Source: a bacterium
GTDB taxonomy: Bacteria > Patescibacteriota > Minisyncoccia > Phycocordibacterales > UBA12079
Length of the DNA stretch: 64,000 bases
Direction of reading: 5' to 3'
Assembly: GCA_018401295.1 (NCBI GenBank)
Contig: JAGYLJ010000002.1
Location: 26,727 to 90,726, forward strand
The notes beneath the pieces were generated by a model. That model ran no database searches, was not told the origin of the DNA, and worked only from the letters and a program-made list of their open reading frames with translations. Below are positions 3 to 61,647 of the stretch, piece by piece. A program made the position numbers and the translations under genes. The number at the start of each line of letters is the position of its first letter. Position 1 is the first letter of the stretch.

Positions 3-530
3 CTTGAGAATAAAAACAAGGAAAAAGAGTTTGGTAATCGGATTACCAAATTAGTGGAGATTGTTTCTTATAGTTTAAATCCTAACCATTATCATTTTAT
101 TTTAAGTCCTTTGGTTGAGAATGGAATTGAAAAATTTATGCAGAAATTAGGTATTGGTTTTACAAGATATTTTAATGAAAAATACAAGAGATCAGGGGTT
201 TTATTTCAAGGTAAGTATAAATCTATACATATAAATACAGATAAATATTTAATGTATTTGAGTGCATATATAAATTTGAATAATAAGATACATTTTCTCT
301 CACATCCAGAATCTAAAGTAGATAAAGAAAAATTGTTTTATAAAAGTAGCTGGAAGGAATATTTGGGGGAAAACAAAGAAAATTTTTGTAATAAGAGTAT
401 TGTTTTAGGTAGATATAAAACAATTGATGATTATAGAGAATTCGCTGAAAGTGTGGCCGAGGGGATAATCGGAAGAAGAATTGATGAGGGAATACAACTA
501 GGGGAAGATTTGTTAATGGAAAAGTTTTGA
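3..530 (+). CDS. REP-associated tyrosine transposase (RAYT, IS200-like Y1/HUH family); 5' end lies upstream of window
   Basis: Frame open from base 3; HUH motif NHYHFIL; Tyr motif LFQGKYKS; REP-like palindromes inside and just downstream. Confidence 0.75.
   Translation, partial: LENKNKEKEFGNRITKLVEIVSYSLNPNHYHFILSPLVENGIEKFMQKLGIGFTRYFNEKYKRSGVLFQGKYKSIHINTDKYLMYLSAYINLNNKIHFLSHPESKVDKEKLFYKSSWKEYLGENKENFCNKSIVLGRYKTIDDYREFAESVAEGIIGRRIDEGIQLGEDLLMEKF
30..50. repeat. REP-like palindrome TTTGGTAATCGGATTACCAAA, inside the RAYT ORF (reads FGNRITK)
   Basis: Exact 21-bp palindrome shared with 5 other loci in the window. Confidence 0.9.
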
Positions 531-1459: not shown

Positions 1460-4400
1460 AAATAATAATTGTTTTAATGGGGATGCTGAGCATCCCCATT
1501 TTTAGTAGTTTTGCTTACGATGATGAGATTACTCATCCTGCTTTGACTCAAGAAATAATTAAATTGTTTGAATCATATTATCCAGAATTTGGATTTAGTG
1601 AGAAAGAGATTAGCCGTATTGAATATGGGAGCCAAGCAGAAGATTCTCCTAATATAAGATGTTTGGCACATTTTTATGATCCTGTTTATGAAACTGGTTT
1701 GTTTGGAAATTTATCAGCCAAACAATGGGCTCTGTCCTCTGTGGCGCAAGGTCTTTTAGATGTTAAATATGATATATTTTTAGCTAATGTCTCTCAGAAT
1801 TTATTTGAATCTGAGACTGATTTTTCTTTTAATAGGGCAGTGTTTGAATATGTGCATGGGTATAAGCTGAGAGGTTTGGAAAGTTTGGGACACACCTTAC
1901 ATCTTCTTGAAGATATGGCCGTGCCTGATCATACAAGGAACGACGACCATGCTTTTGGTTCACCTTATGAGGAATATGCCAAGATGTGGAACAAAGATAA
2001 TATTGATATTGCTGACAACTTGATCGAAAACAGACAAAATCCTGTTGTTTATTCTAATTTAAATGATTATTTTTATAATTTGGCTTTGTTTAGTAATCAA
2101 AACTTTTTTAGCAAGGACACTATTTTTGATAAAAAATATGTAGAGCCGGTTATTGATTATGGAAAAGAAGAAATTTTGAGCGATGGTAGACACTATATCT
2201 TTGGTCATAAGAGGGTTAATAGTAACAAATTAATTAGAATAAAAAGAGAACGTGATATAAATAGCGGTGAGGTATATGAAAGATATTATCTTGATGATAT
2301 TGACAACCTAATCTTCACCGACTACTGGAACACTCTTTCTAAACAAGCTGTATTATACGGAGCAGGAGTTATCAAATTATTTTTTGATGCTGTAGAAGAA
2401 GAGAAGCAAACCCTAGCTTTGTATAAGAAAAATAGGAGTGGTTTTGATGTCGTTGTGGCCGGAGCCACTGATATAGCAAGAAGAATAGCTAAATTGACTT
2501 CAAGTTTGGCGGCGAATGTTAATAGGAGTTTGGGAGGTATCGATAGGCAAGATTTATTAGCAAATATTAGTTCTCAAGAAGAAGATGGTGTAAATGGAGA
2601 GGATTTAGGGGTGGAAATTGTAAGTGAAAGCTTGCAATTTCCACTCCTAAATCCTCCTAGTACCTCTGGTTTAAAACCCGAGGATCCAAATAGTCTTGAA
2701 CTGCAAAGACTCGCTTTAATTTTAAAAGAAGCACAAAAGTTAGTTAATCGCTTAGAAGAAAATATCGGCAATATTCGTGATCAAAACGTCGGAGGCGCTG
2801 GTGATGAAGACCTAATTACTGGTGAAAATGGTAATAATGGGAGTGAGGAAACAGGAAATAAAAATCACCCGGTAATCCAATTACCAAGTGATTTGGTGGG
2901 AAGTAATAATAATTATGGCGGGGGAGGAAGTGGTGGTGGCGGAGTCACCACCATCTCCTCGCCGTCAGTATCGGCAAGCACAGCAAGCGTCACGGTTGCC
3001 ACAACAACCCCCACAGAAACAGCCACCACCACTACCTCTACTGTGACAATTAACCCCCCTATTATAATTTCTCCTTTTAATTTCTCTAGATTTGCTACCA
3101 CTACAATAACTTTTTCGGGAACTGCTTCTTCAACTCAAATTATTTCAACAGATTTTTCCAGTGCCACCACAACTGTTGATCAAAATAACGATTGGGAATT
3201 AAATCTTTCTAATTTTTCACAAGGTACAACCACTTTGGCGTTTTTTGCTAATGACGGCCAAAATACTTCAAGTTCAACTGAAATTGAAATTTTTGTTAAC
3301 TCTACTGCCACAACAACTCCTCTTGTTACCATTGATGCTCCATCTTTAGAGATTAACCAGTGTGATAATTCAATTTCATCATCTTCTTGTTTAATTACTA
3401 CTACAACCCTAGATATCCAGTGGGCGACTAGTTCTCCCTGTACCGATTTTTCTCATTTTAATATTGAAAGTGATGGTGTTTTTTCAACCACCGTTGCCAC
3501 CAGCACTCGGATTACCAATTTAAACGACAATTCTAATTATACTTTTTCGGTGGCGGTGGTTGATATCAATGGAAACGCCTCTGCCACCACCACTCAAATG
3601 GCAATAGTAAGTATTTTACCAGTTGTTATTAATGAAATTGCTTGGGCGGGGACAGATGCTTCCAGTGCTGATGAATGGATTGAACTTTATAATCGTAGTA
3701 ATCGAGATATTGATCTAACAGATTGGGTTCTATATGCAGAAGATTTCTCCCCTGTGATTTCTTTTTCTGAAGCCTCAGACAAAATTATTGAAGCTAGGAG
3801 TTATTATTTGATTGAAAGAACTGATGATACGACCATCAGCGATATTTCTGCTGATTTTACAGCGCCTTTTAGTGGTTGGACAAGTAGTTCGGGCTTATCT
3901 AATAATGGTGAAAATCTTATTTTAGCTTATAAAAAAACTAATCAAGCCACCACGACAGTAGACGAAATCCTTTTTGGAAGTGGTTGGCCCACAGGAGATA
4001 ATTATAGGACATTAGAAAAGTACGATCCAGATTTACCGGGGTCAGAAACAGGGAATTGGGCTTTGTCTATTGGGAAATACATTTTGAATGGTCATGATAG
4101 TAGTGGGGTGACTACAATAAAAGGAACACCAAAAGCTAGAAATAGTATTAATTATAAAATTGCGAAGGAAGATTCTTTGGCTAAAGACAAAATAATTACA
4201 AAAACCAATTCGCCATATTTTGTTGGGATTGACGGGTTAACCATTCAAAGTGGAGTAGTTTTAACCATTGAAGAGGGAGTTATTATTAAATCTGTCCGAT
4301 ACAACAACGCGGATATAATAGTTAATGGTTCTATTCATGCGAACGGCTCAGATAGTGAACCAATTATTTTCACTGCTTTTTCTGATGACATAAATGGAGA

Positions 4401-58320: not shown

Positions 58321-58518
58321 CGGACAGGCGCTCCATTTTGCATAATGTCCACGCTTAGCAGCGCTGTTCTGCTCAGCAAAGCTTCGCATAACAGCTGCTT
58401 ATCCTAAATTTCTATCGAAAAGAAATCTTTTCTCCAGAAACTTCGGATCAAGCGCGGACATTACATTCAATTGACTCGCCTAAGAAAAATTTATACAAAT
58501 TATACAATTAATAAAAAT

Positions 58519-58941
58519 ATGAATTGGAAAGAATTTTTAAAGCCAAATTTACAAAAATTAAAAGAGACAATCTTATTTGTTTTTCTATTTTATATTTTGA
58601 TTAGTATATTTTTTTTCTTAGGTTCTGGTGTTATAGATGGGGATTGGGCTGTAGACAAATTCTATGTTGAACATCTTTCTCAACTTACAACGTCAGAAGC
58701 AGATTGTGAACGATTACCATCCGGTGTTACTTGGGACTGTCCAGGAGGTGAATTTGACTTCCAAATTATTTTAACTTGGATACTAATATTATTAACAGCT
58801 TATATTGTGAGTTGTTATAAAACACTTTTATTAGTTCAAATACCCAATAGCAAGAAAAAAATTATTTATCGTCTATTAGGAATTTGTATAGGTATTGGAT
58901 TTGTTCTCTTCTTGATAGTAATTTGGGCTATAAATAATTAA
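58519..58941 (+). CDS. Hypothetical membrane protein
   Basis: Start MNWKEF at 58519 (track ORF from 58471); 3 hydrophobic helices. Confidence 0.55.
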   Translation: MNWKEFLKPNLQKLKETILFVFLFYILISIFFFLGSGVIDGDWAVDKFYVEHLSQLTTSEADCERLPSGVTWDCPGGEFDFQIILTWILILLTAYIVSCYKTLLLVQIPNSKKKIIYRLLGICIGIGFVLFLIVIWAINN

Positions 58942-59106
58942 AACTGATTCTTTTTCTTGATATGCAAAAACCTAAACCAAACCTTGCGTCATACTGTCGG
59001 TTGCTTTATAGGATTGCCACATAACAGTGATTATTTGTGATTTTCCTGCCGAAAATTCCCGAACTCTGCTACACAGAACTTCAGATAATTCCGATGTTAA
59101 AAAGTG

Positions 59107-59190
59107 CGGTGGATACAGGACTCGAACCTGTAAGGGCTTTCACCCGACGCATTTCGAATGCGCTGCCTTACCAATTCGGCGCAATCCACC
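59107..59190 (-). tRNA. tRNA-Ser (CGA)
   Basis: Hand-folded: acceptor GGTGGAT/ATCCACC, discriminator G, anticodon loop TTCGAAA, long variable arm GGGTGAAAGCCC, T-arm ACAGGTTCGAGTCCTGT. Confidence 0.88.
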
Positions 59191-59260
59191 GTTTCATGTC
59201 TATAAATCTACCATTTTTTTGCTTTTTTGACAAAAATTGATATAATTTTTGCAGTGTTAT

Positions 59261-59332
59261 GGCCCTATCGTCTAACGGTTAGGACATCGGCTTTTCAAGC
59301 CGGCAATCCGGGTTCGATTCCCGGTAGGGTCA
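59261..59332 (+). tRNA. tRNA-Glu (UUC)
   Basis: GGCCCTATCGTCTAACGGTTAGGAC...; anticodon loop TTTTCAA; T-arm CCGGGTTCGATTCCCGG. Confidence 0.9.
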
Positions 59333-59436
59333 CAAAACGTTAAGAAAAAGTAAACCGCTTTACTTTTTTGGTTTTGTGGAGGCGGAGCGATGTTTTTGCT
59401 TCCACCCAGAAGCAAAAACCGCGAGCCGTGGATAAA

Positions 59437-59520
59437 AAACAAACTGCTTTGTTTTTTATCCGGTTTTTGCACAGCAAAAAATTTCCTTTATTGAGCAAAG
59501 CGAAATAGGAAATAGGCGGG
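59437..59520 (+). repeat. Three-hairpin module, copy A (105 nt downstream of tRNA-Glu)
   Basis: About 80% identical by eye to 60519-60612, with compensatory stem changes. Confidence 0.75.
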
Positions 59521-59671
59521 TCGACAAGTACTTAGACTTTTAGAATTCGTAAGAATTTTAAAAGACTTAGTAACTTGTGACCACGTAAAATCTGCGTGCG
59601 TAGCATTCCATATAACTTAACCAAAAAACCAAAGCATTAGTTTTGGTTTTTTATATTTTAGTAAAGGAACT

Positions 59672-60271
59672 ATGGATAAAAAAACTATAGATACTTACAA
59701 CAAAATGGCTAAAGAATATGACGAGGAAACAATCGGTTTTTGGAAAGAATTTCCTGATACCATTATTACTAAATTTTGCGAGAAAATGGAGGGAGATAAA
59801 AAAGTGTTAGACATTGGAAGTGGTCCTGGCCGAGATGGACTTTTATTGAAAGAAAGGGGATTAGATGTTGTTTGTTTAGATGCTTCATCAGAAATGGTAA
59901 AATTATGTGAGAACAAGGGGTTGGATTCAATTGAAGGAGATTTTTTGGATTTGCCTTTTGAAGATAGTACTTTTGATGGGGTTTGGTCATACACTTCTCT
60001 TTTACATGTACAGAAAAAGGAGATGAACAAAGCTTTATCTGAAGTTAGAAGGGTTTTAAAAAAAGACGGTATTTTTGGTTTAGGTTTAATAGAAGGGAAT
60101 AAGGAACTTTATCGTGAAAGTTCTGGGGTTGGAGAATTGAGATGGTTCGCTTTTTATCTCAGAGAAGAAATAGAAAAGTTATTAGAAGATCAGGGCTTTG
60201 TTGTTGAATATTTTGAAGATTTTACACCTAGTTCAAAAAAATATTTGAATTATATTTTGAGAAAAATTTAA
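59672..60271 (+). CDS. Class I SAM-dependent methyltransferase
   Basis: VLDIGSGPGRD motif I. Confidence 0.85.
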   Translation: MDKKTIDTYNKMAKEYDEETIGFWKEFPDTIITKFCEKMEGDKKVLDIGSGPGRDGLLLKERGLDVVCLDASSEMVKLCENKGLDSIEGDFLDLPFEDSTFDGVWSYTSLLHVQKKEMNKALSEVRRVLKKDGIFGLGLIEGNKELYRESSGVGELRWFAFYLREEIEKLLEDQGFVVEYFEDFTPSSKKYLNYILRKI

Positions 60272-60334
60272 AAATAAAGATAAAATATTGTTTGGAATTG
60301 GAGGATAAGATGGGTTATAATTAAATTAAATAAG

Positions 60335-60407
60335 GGGCGGTTAGCTCAGTTGGTAGAGCGCTACATTGACGTTGTAGATGTCACAGGTTCGAATCCTGTA
60401 TCGCCCA
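60335..60407 (+). tRNA. tRNA-Val (GAC)
   Basis: GGGCGGTTAGCTCAGTTGGTAGAGC...; anticodon loop TTGACGT; T-arm ACAGGTTCGAATCCTGT. Confidence 0.9.
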
Positions 60408-60427
60408 CAAATTTGAGACGAAGTGAA

Positions 60428-60900
60428 AAATTGGTGGGCGATAAGTAAGCCAATTGCTTGGCTTACGTCAGGATTCGAAAGTCGGAATATATTGCGAGCG
60501 ATAGCGAGTAATAATGAGACGGGGATAAAAAACAAACTACTTTGTTTTTTATCCGATTTTTCTGAAAGAGAAAATTTCTTATATCGAGCGAAGCGAGATA
60601 GGAAATAGGAGGACGCGAACACTTAATAGATTTCGAGCGAAGCGAAGAAATCTATTTAGTGATTTGTGATCGAATCCTGACTGGTTTATATTTGCCCACA
60701 AAATCTTAAGTCCTAAAGCGTTAGCTTTGAGACTTTTGATTTTGTCGTGACGATACAGGGTTCGAACCGAGCGAATATATTTTTCTGTAGCGAAGCGAAA
60801 GAAAAATTTGAGAGAGCGGAGGTCAAGGGATTGAGATATTTTTGGAGCGAAGCGAACAAAAATATCCATGAGAGTGACCGAATCCTATTTCCACCCCACC
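60428..60900. repeat. Array of degenerate tRNA-Val 3'-end copies in alternating orientation, interleaved with GAGCGAAGCGA-loop hairpins
   Basis: Inverted copies at 60428-60478 and 60738-60770; direct copies at 60661-60700 and 60868-60900. Hairpins at 60574-60606, 60625-60656, 60779-60807 and 60835-60866. Confidence 0.7.
60519..60612 (+). repeat. Three-hairpin module, copy B (112 nt downstream of tRNA-Val)
   Basis: GGATAAAAAACAAACTACTTTGTTTTTTATCC plus two further hairpins, homologous to copy A. Confidence 0.75.
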
Positions 60901-60939
60901 TATTTGCGCAGTTTTCAAGATAAGTTATAATATCTTTAT

Positions 60940-61647
60940 ATGAGATTATTTTTATTCAATAGTATTGGAGAGGAAGAAAAAGCTCAGGCAATTGAGAAAT
61001 TAATAACTCAAAGTACGCCAAGTCAGGATTTCTTTTTCATGATGGCTTTGTCCGTATTAACAGCTGTTTTTGGTATTTTATTAGAAAGTGTAGCTGTTGT
61101 AATTGGAAGTATGTTAATTGCTCCTCTTCTTTCTCCTATTTTAAGTTTATCATTAGGTATAACTATGGCTGATTCCAAATTGATAAGAAGATCGTCCCAA
61201 ACGATTCTTAAATCTGTAATTGTTGGGATTGGAGTCTCAGCAGTAGCAACTCTTCTTTTTGGAGCGGGAAAAATTCCAGAGGTTTTCGTTATTAACCCTA
61301 GTCCAAATTTATTGTCAGTGGCGGTGGCTGTTATAGCTGGTTTTGCTGCAACCTTTGCTTTAGTTAAACACAAGATGAACGAAACTTTGCCAGGGGTGGC
61401 TATTGCTGTGGCTTTAATTCCTCCCATTGCACTTATTGGTATTGGTTTAGCTGAAATGAGTTGGGTTATGATGACAGACGCCCTCATTTTATTTGGATTG
61501 AATATCGTCGGTATTATTTTCGCAGGAATGGTGACATTTTCTTTAATGAATTTTTATACAAAGAAAAAAGTAGCAGAGATTATCGTTATGAAAGAAGATA
61601 AAAAACTAGAAGAAGAGGAACCTAAAGAATTAAAAGAAAATATTTAA
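60940..61647 (+). CDS. DUF389-like polytopic membrane protein
   Basis: VIGSMLIAPLLSPIL motif; family name from memory. Confidence 0.6.
   Translation: MRLFLFNSIGEEEKAQAIEKLITQSTPSQDFFFMMALSVLTAVFGILLESVAVVIGSMLIAPLLSPILSLSLGITMADSKLIRRSSQTILKSVIVGIGVSAVATLLFGAGKIPEVFVINPSPNLLSVAVAVIAGFAATFALVKHKMNETLPGVAIAVALIPPIALIGIGLAEMSWVMMTDALILFGLNIVGIIFAGMVTFSLMNFYTKKKVAEIIVMKEDKKLEEEEPKELKENI

Follow-up and report, generated by a model that had tools for sequence, protein, structure and literature searches.

The 90-nt module that occurs twice in the window (the whole stretch of 64,000 nucleotides analyzed here) is probably a non-autonomous insertion element of ~90 bp, non-coding, that spreads by copy-and-paste in a site-specific and orientation-specific manner. 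Its boundaries as a unit are defined, filled and empty versions of its site exist, it has been copied recently within the genome, and its target is of the D-loop type. It is restricted to redundant tRNA-derived DNA, and it folds on the sense strand. New here are the recognition that the module is a unit in its own right, the identification of the D-loop as its target, its occurrence nested within larger insertions, the family-wide census and the covariation; a literature search turned up no description of hairpin modules linked to tRNAs in Patescibacteria.

Both window copies lie on the plus strand, downstream of an intact tRNA gene. A repeat search identifies a 97-nt direct repeat at 59423-59519 and 60516-60612 with 82% identity, close to the ~80% estimated by eye in the sequence-only reading, and the covariance model delimits the unit to 90 nt, at 59430..59519 for copy 1 (model R1, 109 bits; alignments A2 and A3) and 60523..60612 for copy 2 (model R1, 105 bits; delimited also by an 89-nt indel against the element behind tRNA-Arg(CCU)). 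The blocks first marked were the right ones, with 5′ ends off by 4-7 nt. The three hairpins described then are present. In copy 1 they span 59430-59461 (hairpin 1), 59464-59480 (hairpin 2) and 59482-59512 (hairpin 3, with the GAGCAAAGCGA cap), and are followed by the tail TAGGCGG. Hairpin 1 has 14 bp and is perfect in both window copies (I11, I12). The arms of hairpin 2 differ between the copies and are complementary within each, as had been noticed, and the cap motif of hairpin 3, GAGC[A/G]AAGCGA, is found four times in the window against 0.02 expected.

Each of these modules is part of a longer structured element, some 250-270 nt in length, located 3′ of the tRNA. Read 5′ to 3′, the element starts with a trailer hairpin and an inverted copy of the tRNA 3′ end. 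Next comes the module, set between an arm B on its 5′ side and an arm C that terminates in TTAGTGAYTTGTG, and last a direct copy of the T-loop and 3′ strand of the same tRNA. The inverted part corresponds to the acceptor 3′ strand plus the T-stem and T-loop, and is split in some elements by a small hairpin A. The inverted and direct tRNA copies pair with each other, closing the whole element, with RNA fold z-scores of -7.7 and -10.6.

At the second locus the host is tRNA-Val(GAC) (60335..60408; ARAGORN, and 70.6 bits with the Rfam tRNA model). The inverted copy of its 3′ end occupies 60428..60479 (inverted repeat I9; fold), made up of the complement of the acceptor 3′ strand plus trailer (60428-60443), the inserted hairpin A (60445-60466) and the complement of the T-stem and T-loop (60467-60479). 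Arm B (60480..60522) is a capped hairpin with terminus ...GAGACGG that is ~90% identical to the module-free element after tRNA-Arg(CCU) (alignment A5). Beyond the module, arm C (60613..60669; fold, alignment A5 and inverted-repeat search) is a further capped hairpin (I14) that terminates in TTAGTGATTTGTGA, and by sequence and fold the element ends at 60670..60700 (TCGAATCCTGAC ... GCCCACA), where the T-loop and 3′ strand of tRNA-Val are copied in part and in direct orientation. This copy pairs with 60428-60479, so that the Val-locus element is closed (fold z = -10.6). Behind it lies a second tRNA-end insertion, free of the module (60751..60900; I6, D2, D3), with an inverted T-arm copy at 60751-60768 and two capped hairpins. 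The window also holds tRNA-Ser(CGA) on the minus strand (ARAGORN).

The first locus follows the same plan. The host tRNA-Glu(UUC) (59261..59333; ARAGORN, and 64.4 bits with the Rfam tRNA model) is followed at 59344..59378 (sequence; fold) by the trailer hairpin (59344-59369) and then GGTTTTGTG, which is an inverted copy of the tRNA-Glu end plus trailer, CACAAAAC (59331-59338). Arm B of this T-loop-type insertion (59379..59429; fold) ends in ...CGAGCCGT right before the module, and homologous arms are present in G004 (L024) and G003 (L051). Arm C (59520..59582; fold) is a long hairpin with terminus ...TAGTAACTTGTGACC, assigned on the basis of the motif TAGTRAYTTGTG that is common to 10 elements of the genome; the distal copy of the tRNA-Glu 3′ end is decayed in this region. 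The inverted copies of the tRNA trailer that had been noticed in the spacers are therefore real, as the CACAAAAC/GGTTTTGTG pair for Glu and as I9 (16 nt at 94%) for Val.

About ten tRNA-end elements exist in the genome, behind different tRNAs, with ends that match each neighbouring tRNA, and several of them are module-free. In the metagenome contig of a relative, 60403 is joined to 60895 through 11 shared letters, showing a relative that lacks both tRNA-end elements behind tRNA-Val. The junction in this contig is consistent with insertions that duplicate the tRNA 3′ end. The window modules are nested inside such a larger insertion in the tRNA 3′ end, and it is the nesting that explains the parallel architecture of the two loci. 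The distance from tRNA end to module start is 96 nt for Glu and 114 nt for Val, so that of the equal spacing originally claimed a similarity of offset survives, and the offsets are similar because the two elements are homologous and have the module at the same B/C junction. The module resembles the tRNA-end insertions and the tRNA-nested GIY-YIG cassettes in its occurrence in the same genomes, its capped-hairpin blocks and the intact tRNA that is left, but it is a separate unit, inserting into the tRNA-end elements and into D-loops.

A direct copy of a tRNA 3′ end flanks the tRNA-end elements just as it does at island att sites, and the loci might on that account be relics of integrase-mediated islands, that is att-site scars at tRNA genes. 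We regard this as extremely improbable. A single core recurs at many different tRNAs, its ends fitted in each case to the tRNA in question; the elements, of 150-300 bp, lack an integrase; and the module is found in D-loops, which are not a known att position. Assignment to the class of tRNA-island att scars was rejected on like grounds (at least 14 host tRNA species; elements <300 bp without integrase; module at the D-loop).

That the module is itself a discrete unit is seen from filled and empty sites. Within this genome the Val(GAC) and Arg(CCU) elements differ by a clean 89-nt indel between flanks that are ~90% identical (A5). The ortholog of the Glu(UUC) element in the congener G003 has no module, and there ...CGAGCCGT runs directly into GTCC.... 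In a groundwater contig ~93% identical to the tRNA-Val locus, 60524 is joined to 60614 by a single T; the empty site is thus ...GG-T-CGCGAA..., the T being exchanged for the module in the filled one. Between them, this genome, a congener and a metagenome contig provide both filled and empty forms of the site. Four copies in the genome (Val, Arg-UCU, Ser-UGA and one beside tRNA-Phe) are mutually 93-98% identical. Of these the Phe copy is in a D-loop and the other three are in tRNA-end elements; identity between the Phe flanks and those of the rest is only 42-51%, the level of chance. Near-identity within unrelated flanks points to recent copying of a unit with sharp ends. It had been suggested that the module was the conserved end of an element targeting tRNA genes; the targeting was close to the truth, but the module is a self-contained 90-nt insert rather than an end. 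The copies L085 and L088 are chimeric, revealing recombination at the level of individual hairpins.

The module is short (90 nt), non-coding and multicopy (nine copies in the genome), as is a MITE, but terminal inverted repeats are absent and its ends, GGATAAAA... and ...AATAGGNGG, are not complementary (A3), and we have rejected that assignment. There is a GG on both sides that might suggest a target-site duplication, but the GG may belong to the module, and the base after the target GG is replaced.

How widespread is the module, and where does it insert? A BLAST search of the 619-kb genome, which comes from a salt-lake metagenome, finds nine copies, every one within or beside tRNA-derived DNA, and the link to tRNA suspected from two loci is borne out. 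Six are in tRNA-end elements, downstream of a tRNA and in the same orientation. The other three are joined directly to the 5′-terminal 19-30 nt of a tRNA, which comprise the acceptor 5′ strand and the D-arm as far as the D-loop GG, and they lie 70-130 nt upstream of an intact gene for the same tRNA (Phe, Ser-GCU and Glu-CUC). Our census comprises 58 distinct full-length copies, nine from this genome, 43 from 18 relatives and six from metagenomes, all of them in the tRNA sense orientation. Forty occupy the D-loop of a tRNA copy that is incomplete or dead and has an intact gene beside it, an arrangement that predominates in the relatives; 17 are at the B/C junction of a tRNA-end element, a D-loop-like site, and one abuts a tRNA 3′ end. 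None of the 58 copies read is located elsewhere. At least 14 tRNA species carry the module at one locus or another; the hosts include Gly, His, Ile, Phe, Val, Tyr, Arg, Lys, three Leu, three Thr, two Glu and four Ser species, and they vary among genomes.

D-loop copies read ...RGTTGG, then the module ending ...AGGNGG-R, then AGAGC.... The entry point is right after G18-G19, and the next base is replaced. At the look-alike site, between the two arms of the tRNA-end insertions, ...GAGNCGGGG precedes the module and TCGMGA... follows it; the look-alike form of the target is GAGNCGGGGTCGMGAA. The B/C junctions, GAGTTGGGGTCGAGAGTAC or GAGACGGGGTCGAAAGTAC, resemble D-arms such as GCTGAGTGGTCGAAAGC of tRNA-Ser and GCTCAGTTGGTAGAGC of tRNA-Phe, and given this D-loop-like character the two classes of site are probably one target. 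Some left junctions vary, with GGTTATTG joined to GAAT in the Glu copies and GGAGAGGT joined to GG in one Ser copy. Such variation would be expected of imprecise repair more than of an exact transposase, and it makes site-specific insertion a less secure claim.

Among the 58 copies none lies in a tRNA copy that could potentially work. The host copies are without the 5′ acceptor strand, or end in the anticodon arm or lack the 3′ half, and an intact gene is adjacent. A tRNA intron, whether group I or bulge-helix-bulge, was rejected for these reasons, every host copy being incomplete with an intact gene alongside, and there is no Rfam intron match. A scan of 58500-61500 against Rfam 15 at permissive thresholds placed only three tRNAs above threshold.

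These positions bear on the other proposal made from the sequence, that of a signal for tRNA 3′ processing, or of a functional ncRNA co-transcribed with tRNAs and set at a constant distance behind them. The structure is indeed conserved, and the six genome copies downstream of a tRNA have the placement and orientation expected of either. However, 40 of the 58 family copies are upstream of a tRNA or within dead copies, most of the ~40 tRNA genes of this genome are without a module, different genomes have it at different tRNAs, orthologous loci occur with and without the module, and no Rfam family matches. We consider the proposal very improbable, and the module is not a general tRNA processing signal.

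Of 19 genomes in one Campbellbacteria-like family of ultra-small bacteria, 18 have matches to the covariance model, 1 to ~19 in each, and BLAST detects the module in five of 22 other families of the order. Named records that contain the exact conserved 24-mer are Candidatus Campbellbacteria and Paceibacterota MAGs, and viral contigs contain no exact match to it.

The covariation hinted at by hairpin 2 of the two window copies is evident throughout the family. In an alignment of 30 copies made without a structure reference, 95.5% of cells are paired and 17 of the 32 pairs have changes on both sides; in all 58 copies, aligned to the covariance model and hence leaning towards it, 95.0% of cells are paired with changes on both sides in 28 of the 32 pairs. 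None of 500 shuffles reached the observed pairing and compensation, and slid controls are 42-61% paired; like the placement of all nine genome copies in or beside tRNA-derived DNA, this goes far beyond chance. There are 52 G-T wobbles against eight A-C mismatches, plus 19 A-C at one lineage-specific position that is readable as a bulge. The sense strand is better folded than its complement in 53-54 of the 58 copies, using either RNA or DNA parameters, although the copies are related, so that both this strand count and the compensatory counts overstate independence. The fold belongs to the sense strand. In a divergent lineage (L066, L069, L030) the three-hairpin plan is kept with stems that are quite different, and the junction motifs GGAT.AAAAG, CCGG and ATAGGAGG are retained. 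Compensatory changes in hairpins can also arise without selection, through the established mechanism of template switching in quasi-palindromes.

A sense-strand fold would equally be expected of an RNA insulator selected by the host, in which a putative transcript of the module would terminate or isolate read-through from the orphaned tRNA fragment, so keeping the fragment from mispairing with the neighbouring real tRNA precursor. Copies do lie between an orphaned 5′ tRNA fragment, with its old promoter region, and a real tRNA with a -10-like box, and hairpin 1 with its T-run scores terminator-like in both window copies. Moreover the module upstream of tRNA-Glu(CUC) is common to five genomes in two genera (g1 and g5), where the module has a mean pairwise identity of 74%, above that of the adjacent spacer (62%) and the upstream flank (56%) and below that of the tRNA (91%); the persistence of this copy could mean a host function, not selfish persistence. 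But many copies have no T-run after hairpin 1 (GGTTCTGAGC-type variants), and in the tRNA-end elements a separate terminator hairpin is already present 5′ of the module. Insulation would leave unexplained both the near-identical copies at unrelated sites and the exclusive use of the D-loop position, and we think it unlikely. The simpler assignment as an intrinsic (Rho-independent) terminator was rejected, the T-run being replaced by TTCTGAGC-type sequence in many copies.

We return to the insertion element. The retention of three hairpins suggests that it works as a folded single strand of sense polarity, for which we favour single-stranded DNA recognized in cis by its mover, with RNA as a second possibility. 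The engine would act in trans. In the version that we prefer, a nuclease specific for tRNA genes would nick or break the conserved D-loop sequence, and repair, templated at another locus, would then bring in a copy of the module; this would also cover the partial duplications and the fold-back (inverted) tRNA segments that are found at the copies. A nuclease is favoured because six genes for GIY-YIG proteins of 80-110 aa are present in the genome, several of them nested inside tRNA genes, and because the loci bear scars of repair. The main alternative for the engine is a dedicated single-strand transposase.

The scars are of several kinds. Fragments of Glu and Tyr tRNAs reach the anticodon loop and are then followed by the reverse complement of the preceding 7-13 nt (L009, L026, L035, L067, L078). 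This makes the anticodon arm a perfect palindrome, conserved across genera at 84% identity, and is a fold-back or template-switch signature. Downstream tRNA duplicates start with an inverted D-arm, and tandem arrays of fragment plus module occur at L066, L078 and L032. Fold-backs, inverted D-arms and tandem arrays are all signatures of break repair or template switching.

The loci acquire other inserts too. In the closed genome G009 a dead tRNA-Thr copy has a module in its D-loop and a GIY-YIG minigene in its T-loop (L023, G009:C1, 1626-1932), the latter an 82-aa gene within 16-bp inverted repeats (CCCAGCACTCAATTT...). The ortholog in G013 (L046) has the module and an intact T-loop, and together the two appear to be a clean filled and empty pair for the nuclease minigene. 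At L050 (G002:C8), between tRNA-Ser(CGA) and tRNA-Val(GAC), there are dead 5′ fragments of both tRNAs, with hairpin 1 alone inserted at one D-loop position and a 37-nt GC-rich hairpin at the other; the site thus takes several kinds of hairpin insert. In G001 (L052) a GC-rich palindrome is nested in the hairpin 1 loop of a module. This ~20-nt sequence (CCTGCCTGCCGGCAGGCAGG and variants) is present also at L061, L062 and L063 of G009, its sites being dead tRNA fragments, arm B of a tRNA-end element and the module hairpin 1 loop, and it is probably a REP-type palindrome of G009 and G001.

The GIY-YIG genes are found in every genome of the order, whether the module is present or absent. Just one of ~58 modules has such a gene closer than 100 nt, and the two are thus not generally linked; no module flanks any of the six GIY-YIG genes of this genome. 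The GIY-YIG protein encoded in the window gave sub-threshold matches only in an NCBIfam scan, and matches UPF0213-type structures in a PDB search.

A dedicated transposase would make the module a PATE-like single-strand transposon, a miniature derivative of the IS200/IS605 type moved by a HUH (Y1) transposase, in which folded single-stranded DNA is excised and inserted 3′ of TGG or GGG without target duplication. IS608-type ends have subterminal hairpins. Several properties of the module accord with this: hairpins at both ends, strict orientation with a TGG or GGG left flank, no terminal inverted repeats or clear duplication, and a fold specific to the sense strand. The hairpin 3 cap contains GCGAAGC, which is described as an extraordinarily stable DNA mini-hairpin (PMC13037366). 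A reading frame at window 3-530 (plus strand, open at its 5′ end) has the HUH-like motif NHYHFIL, with its HYH, and matches Pfam Y1_Tnp at 31.7 bits; it is predicted to encode a REP-associated or IS200-type transposase homologue, and such a Y1-type single-strand transposase is a possible mover of the module. Yet the left hairpin of the module begins at the junction itself, which makes it terminal and not subterminal; the base that follows the target GG is replaced instead of being retained; and junctions vary in some lineages. No full-length element with the module ends was seen. We therefore hold this mode of movement to be a minority possibility, somewhat ahead of insulation.

Like PATEs, then, the module has hairpin ends, no inverted termini, oriented insertion by a short word and a one-strand fold; it differs in that no cognate autonomous element was found, and the replaced base and variable left junctions fit poorly. 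There are other families with which it may be compared. Rickettsia palindromic elements, Neisseria Correia elements and REP/BIME are small structured repeats that insert into genes. The module is similarly short, non-coding and hairpin-forming, with many copies per small genome, presence or absence that varies among relatives, and nested insertions. In contrast to them it has no terminal inverted repeats, forms three hairpins in place of one palindrome, and targets a universally conserved piece of the tRNA gene where it is tolerated only in redundant tRNA copies. Mitochondrial GC clusters and double-hairpin elements are likewise mobile hairpin modules, families that invade compact genomes, RNA genes included; these are organellar, are not strictly targeted to D-loops and show no sequence relationship to the module. 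The repetitive hairpin-forming elements of sponge mitochondria (PMC2800124) belong in the same comparison.

A further comparison is with the NTS/SRM hairpin repeats that are cut by Ssn, single-domain GIY-YIG nucleases acting on single-stranded DNA (Chenal et al. 2025, PMC11893778). These too are hairpin repeats with a tip of the GCG-xAx-GC type. Ssn acts strand-specifically on single-stranded DNA, and the genomes with the module also encode nucleases of ~90 aa consisting of a GIY-YIG domain only. By this analogy the module may work in the manner of the hairpin repeats served by Ssn (PMC11893778). On the other hand the NTS consensus CGTCATTCCCGCG... (PMC11893778) is absent from the module, the window GIY-YIG protein matches UPF0213-type structures, and there is no spatial association of module and GIY-YIG gene save at one locus. 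As a member of the Ssn-related NTS/SRM class the module was rejected, the consensus being absent and modules not being clustered at GIY-YIG genes. A more speculative idea, to which we give about as little credence as to the PATE-like mode, is that of a guild of tiny selfish elements, hosted by the tRNA genes of these ultra-small bacteria, that would recognize the universally conserved coding sequences of the D-loop and T-loop. The module would then be the non-autonomous partner of a D-loop-specific nuclease or recombinase, perhaps one of the single-domain GIY-YIG proteins of 80-110 aa, that reads folded single-stranded DNA; such a pair of hairpin and enzyme would be new, and its target would exist in the genome of every cell.

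Two further ideas were set aside. A primer-binding site is rejected because in the Phe and Ser elements the inverted copy complements the trailer of the gene itself, not the mature CCA. Immunity of the target site against a homing nuclease is unlikely because the adjacent intact tRNA keeps the same D-loop.

tRNA genes are usually regarded only as docking sites for integrases, and the present family indicates that they can be invaded at the D-loop by a non-coding unit of 90 nt. Even at 0.6-0.9 Mb, these strongly reduced genomes harbour a family of structured insertions that is still active. In practical terms the modules leave Patescibacteria assemblies with dead tRNA copies, fragments in tandem and spurious tRNA calls, and they break contigs at tRNA loci. 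Should the moving enzyme be found, it would be one that recognizes a folded single strand together with a 10-15-nt sequence common to most cellular tRNA genes, and would be of interest to those studying mobile DNA and site-specific single-strand nucleases.

Some other features of the neighbouring DNA may be recorded. Between tRNA-Glu and tRNA-Val in the window there is an open reading frame for a 199-aa class I SAM-dependent methyltransferase (59672-60271, plus strand), of which the best NCBIfam match is the DVU_1556 family, below cut-off. In the congeners G002 and G003 tRNA-Glu and tRNA-Val are 150-300 nt apart with no gene between them, and in a freshwater contig 59336 is joined to 60335, so that the methyltransferase gene looks like inserted cargo. 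Outside the window, at G000:C1:2214-2643, tRNA-Thr(UGU) is followed by four tandem 89-nt units that end in the tRNA-Thr T-arm and acceptor 3′ strand, and ARAGORN miscalls these as tRNA-Ser(ACU). Also outside the window, on the minus strand at ~2800-3280 of G000:C1, a reading frame downstream of tRNA-Leu(CAA) has a LAGLIDADG-like start (...GVALGDGNLS...), and may encode a homing endonuclease beside another tRNA.
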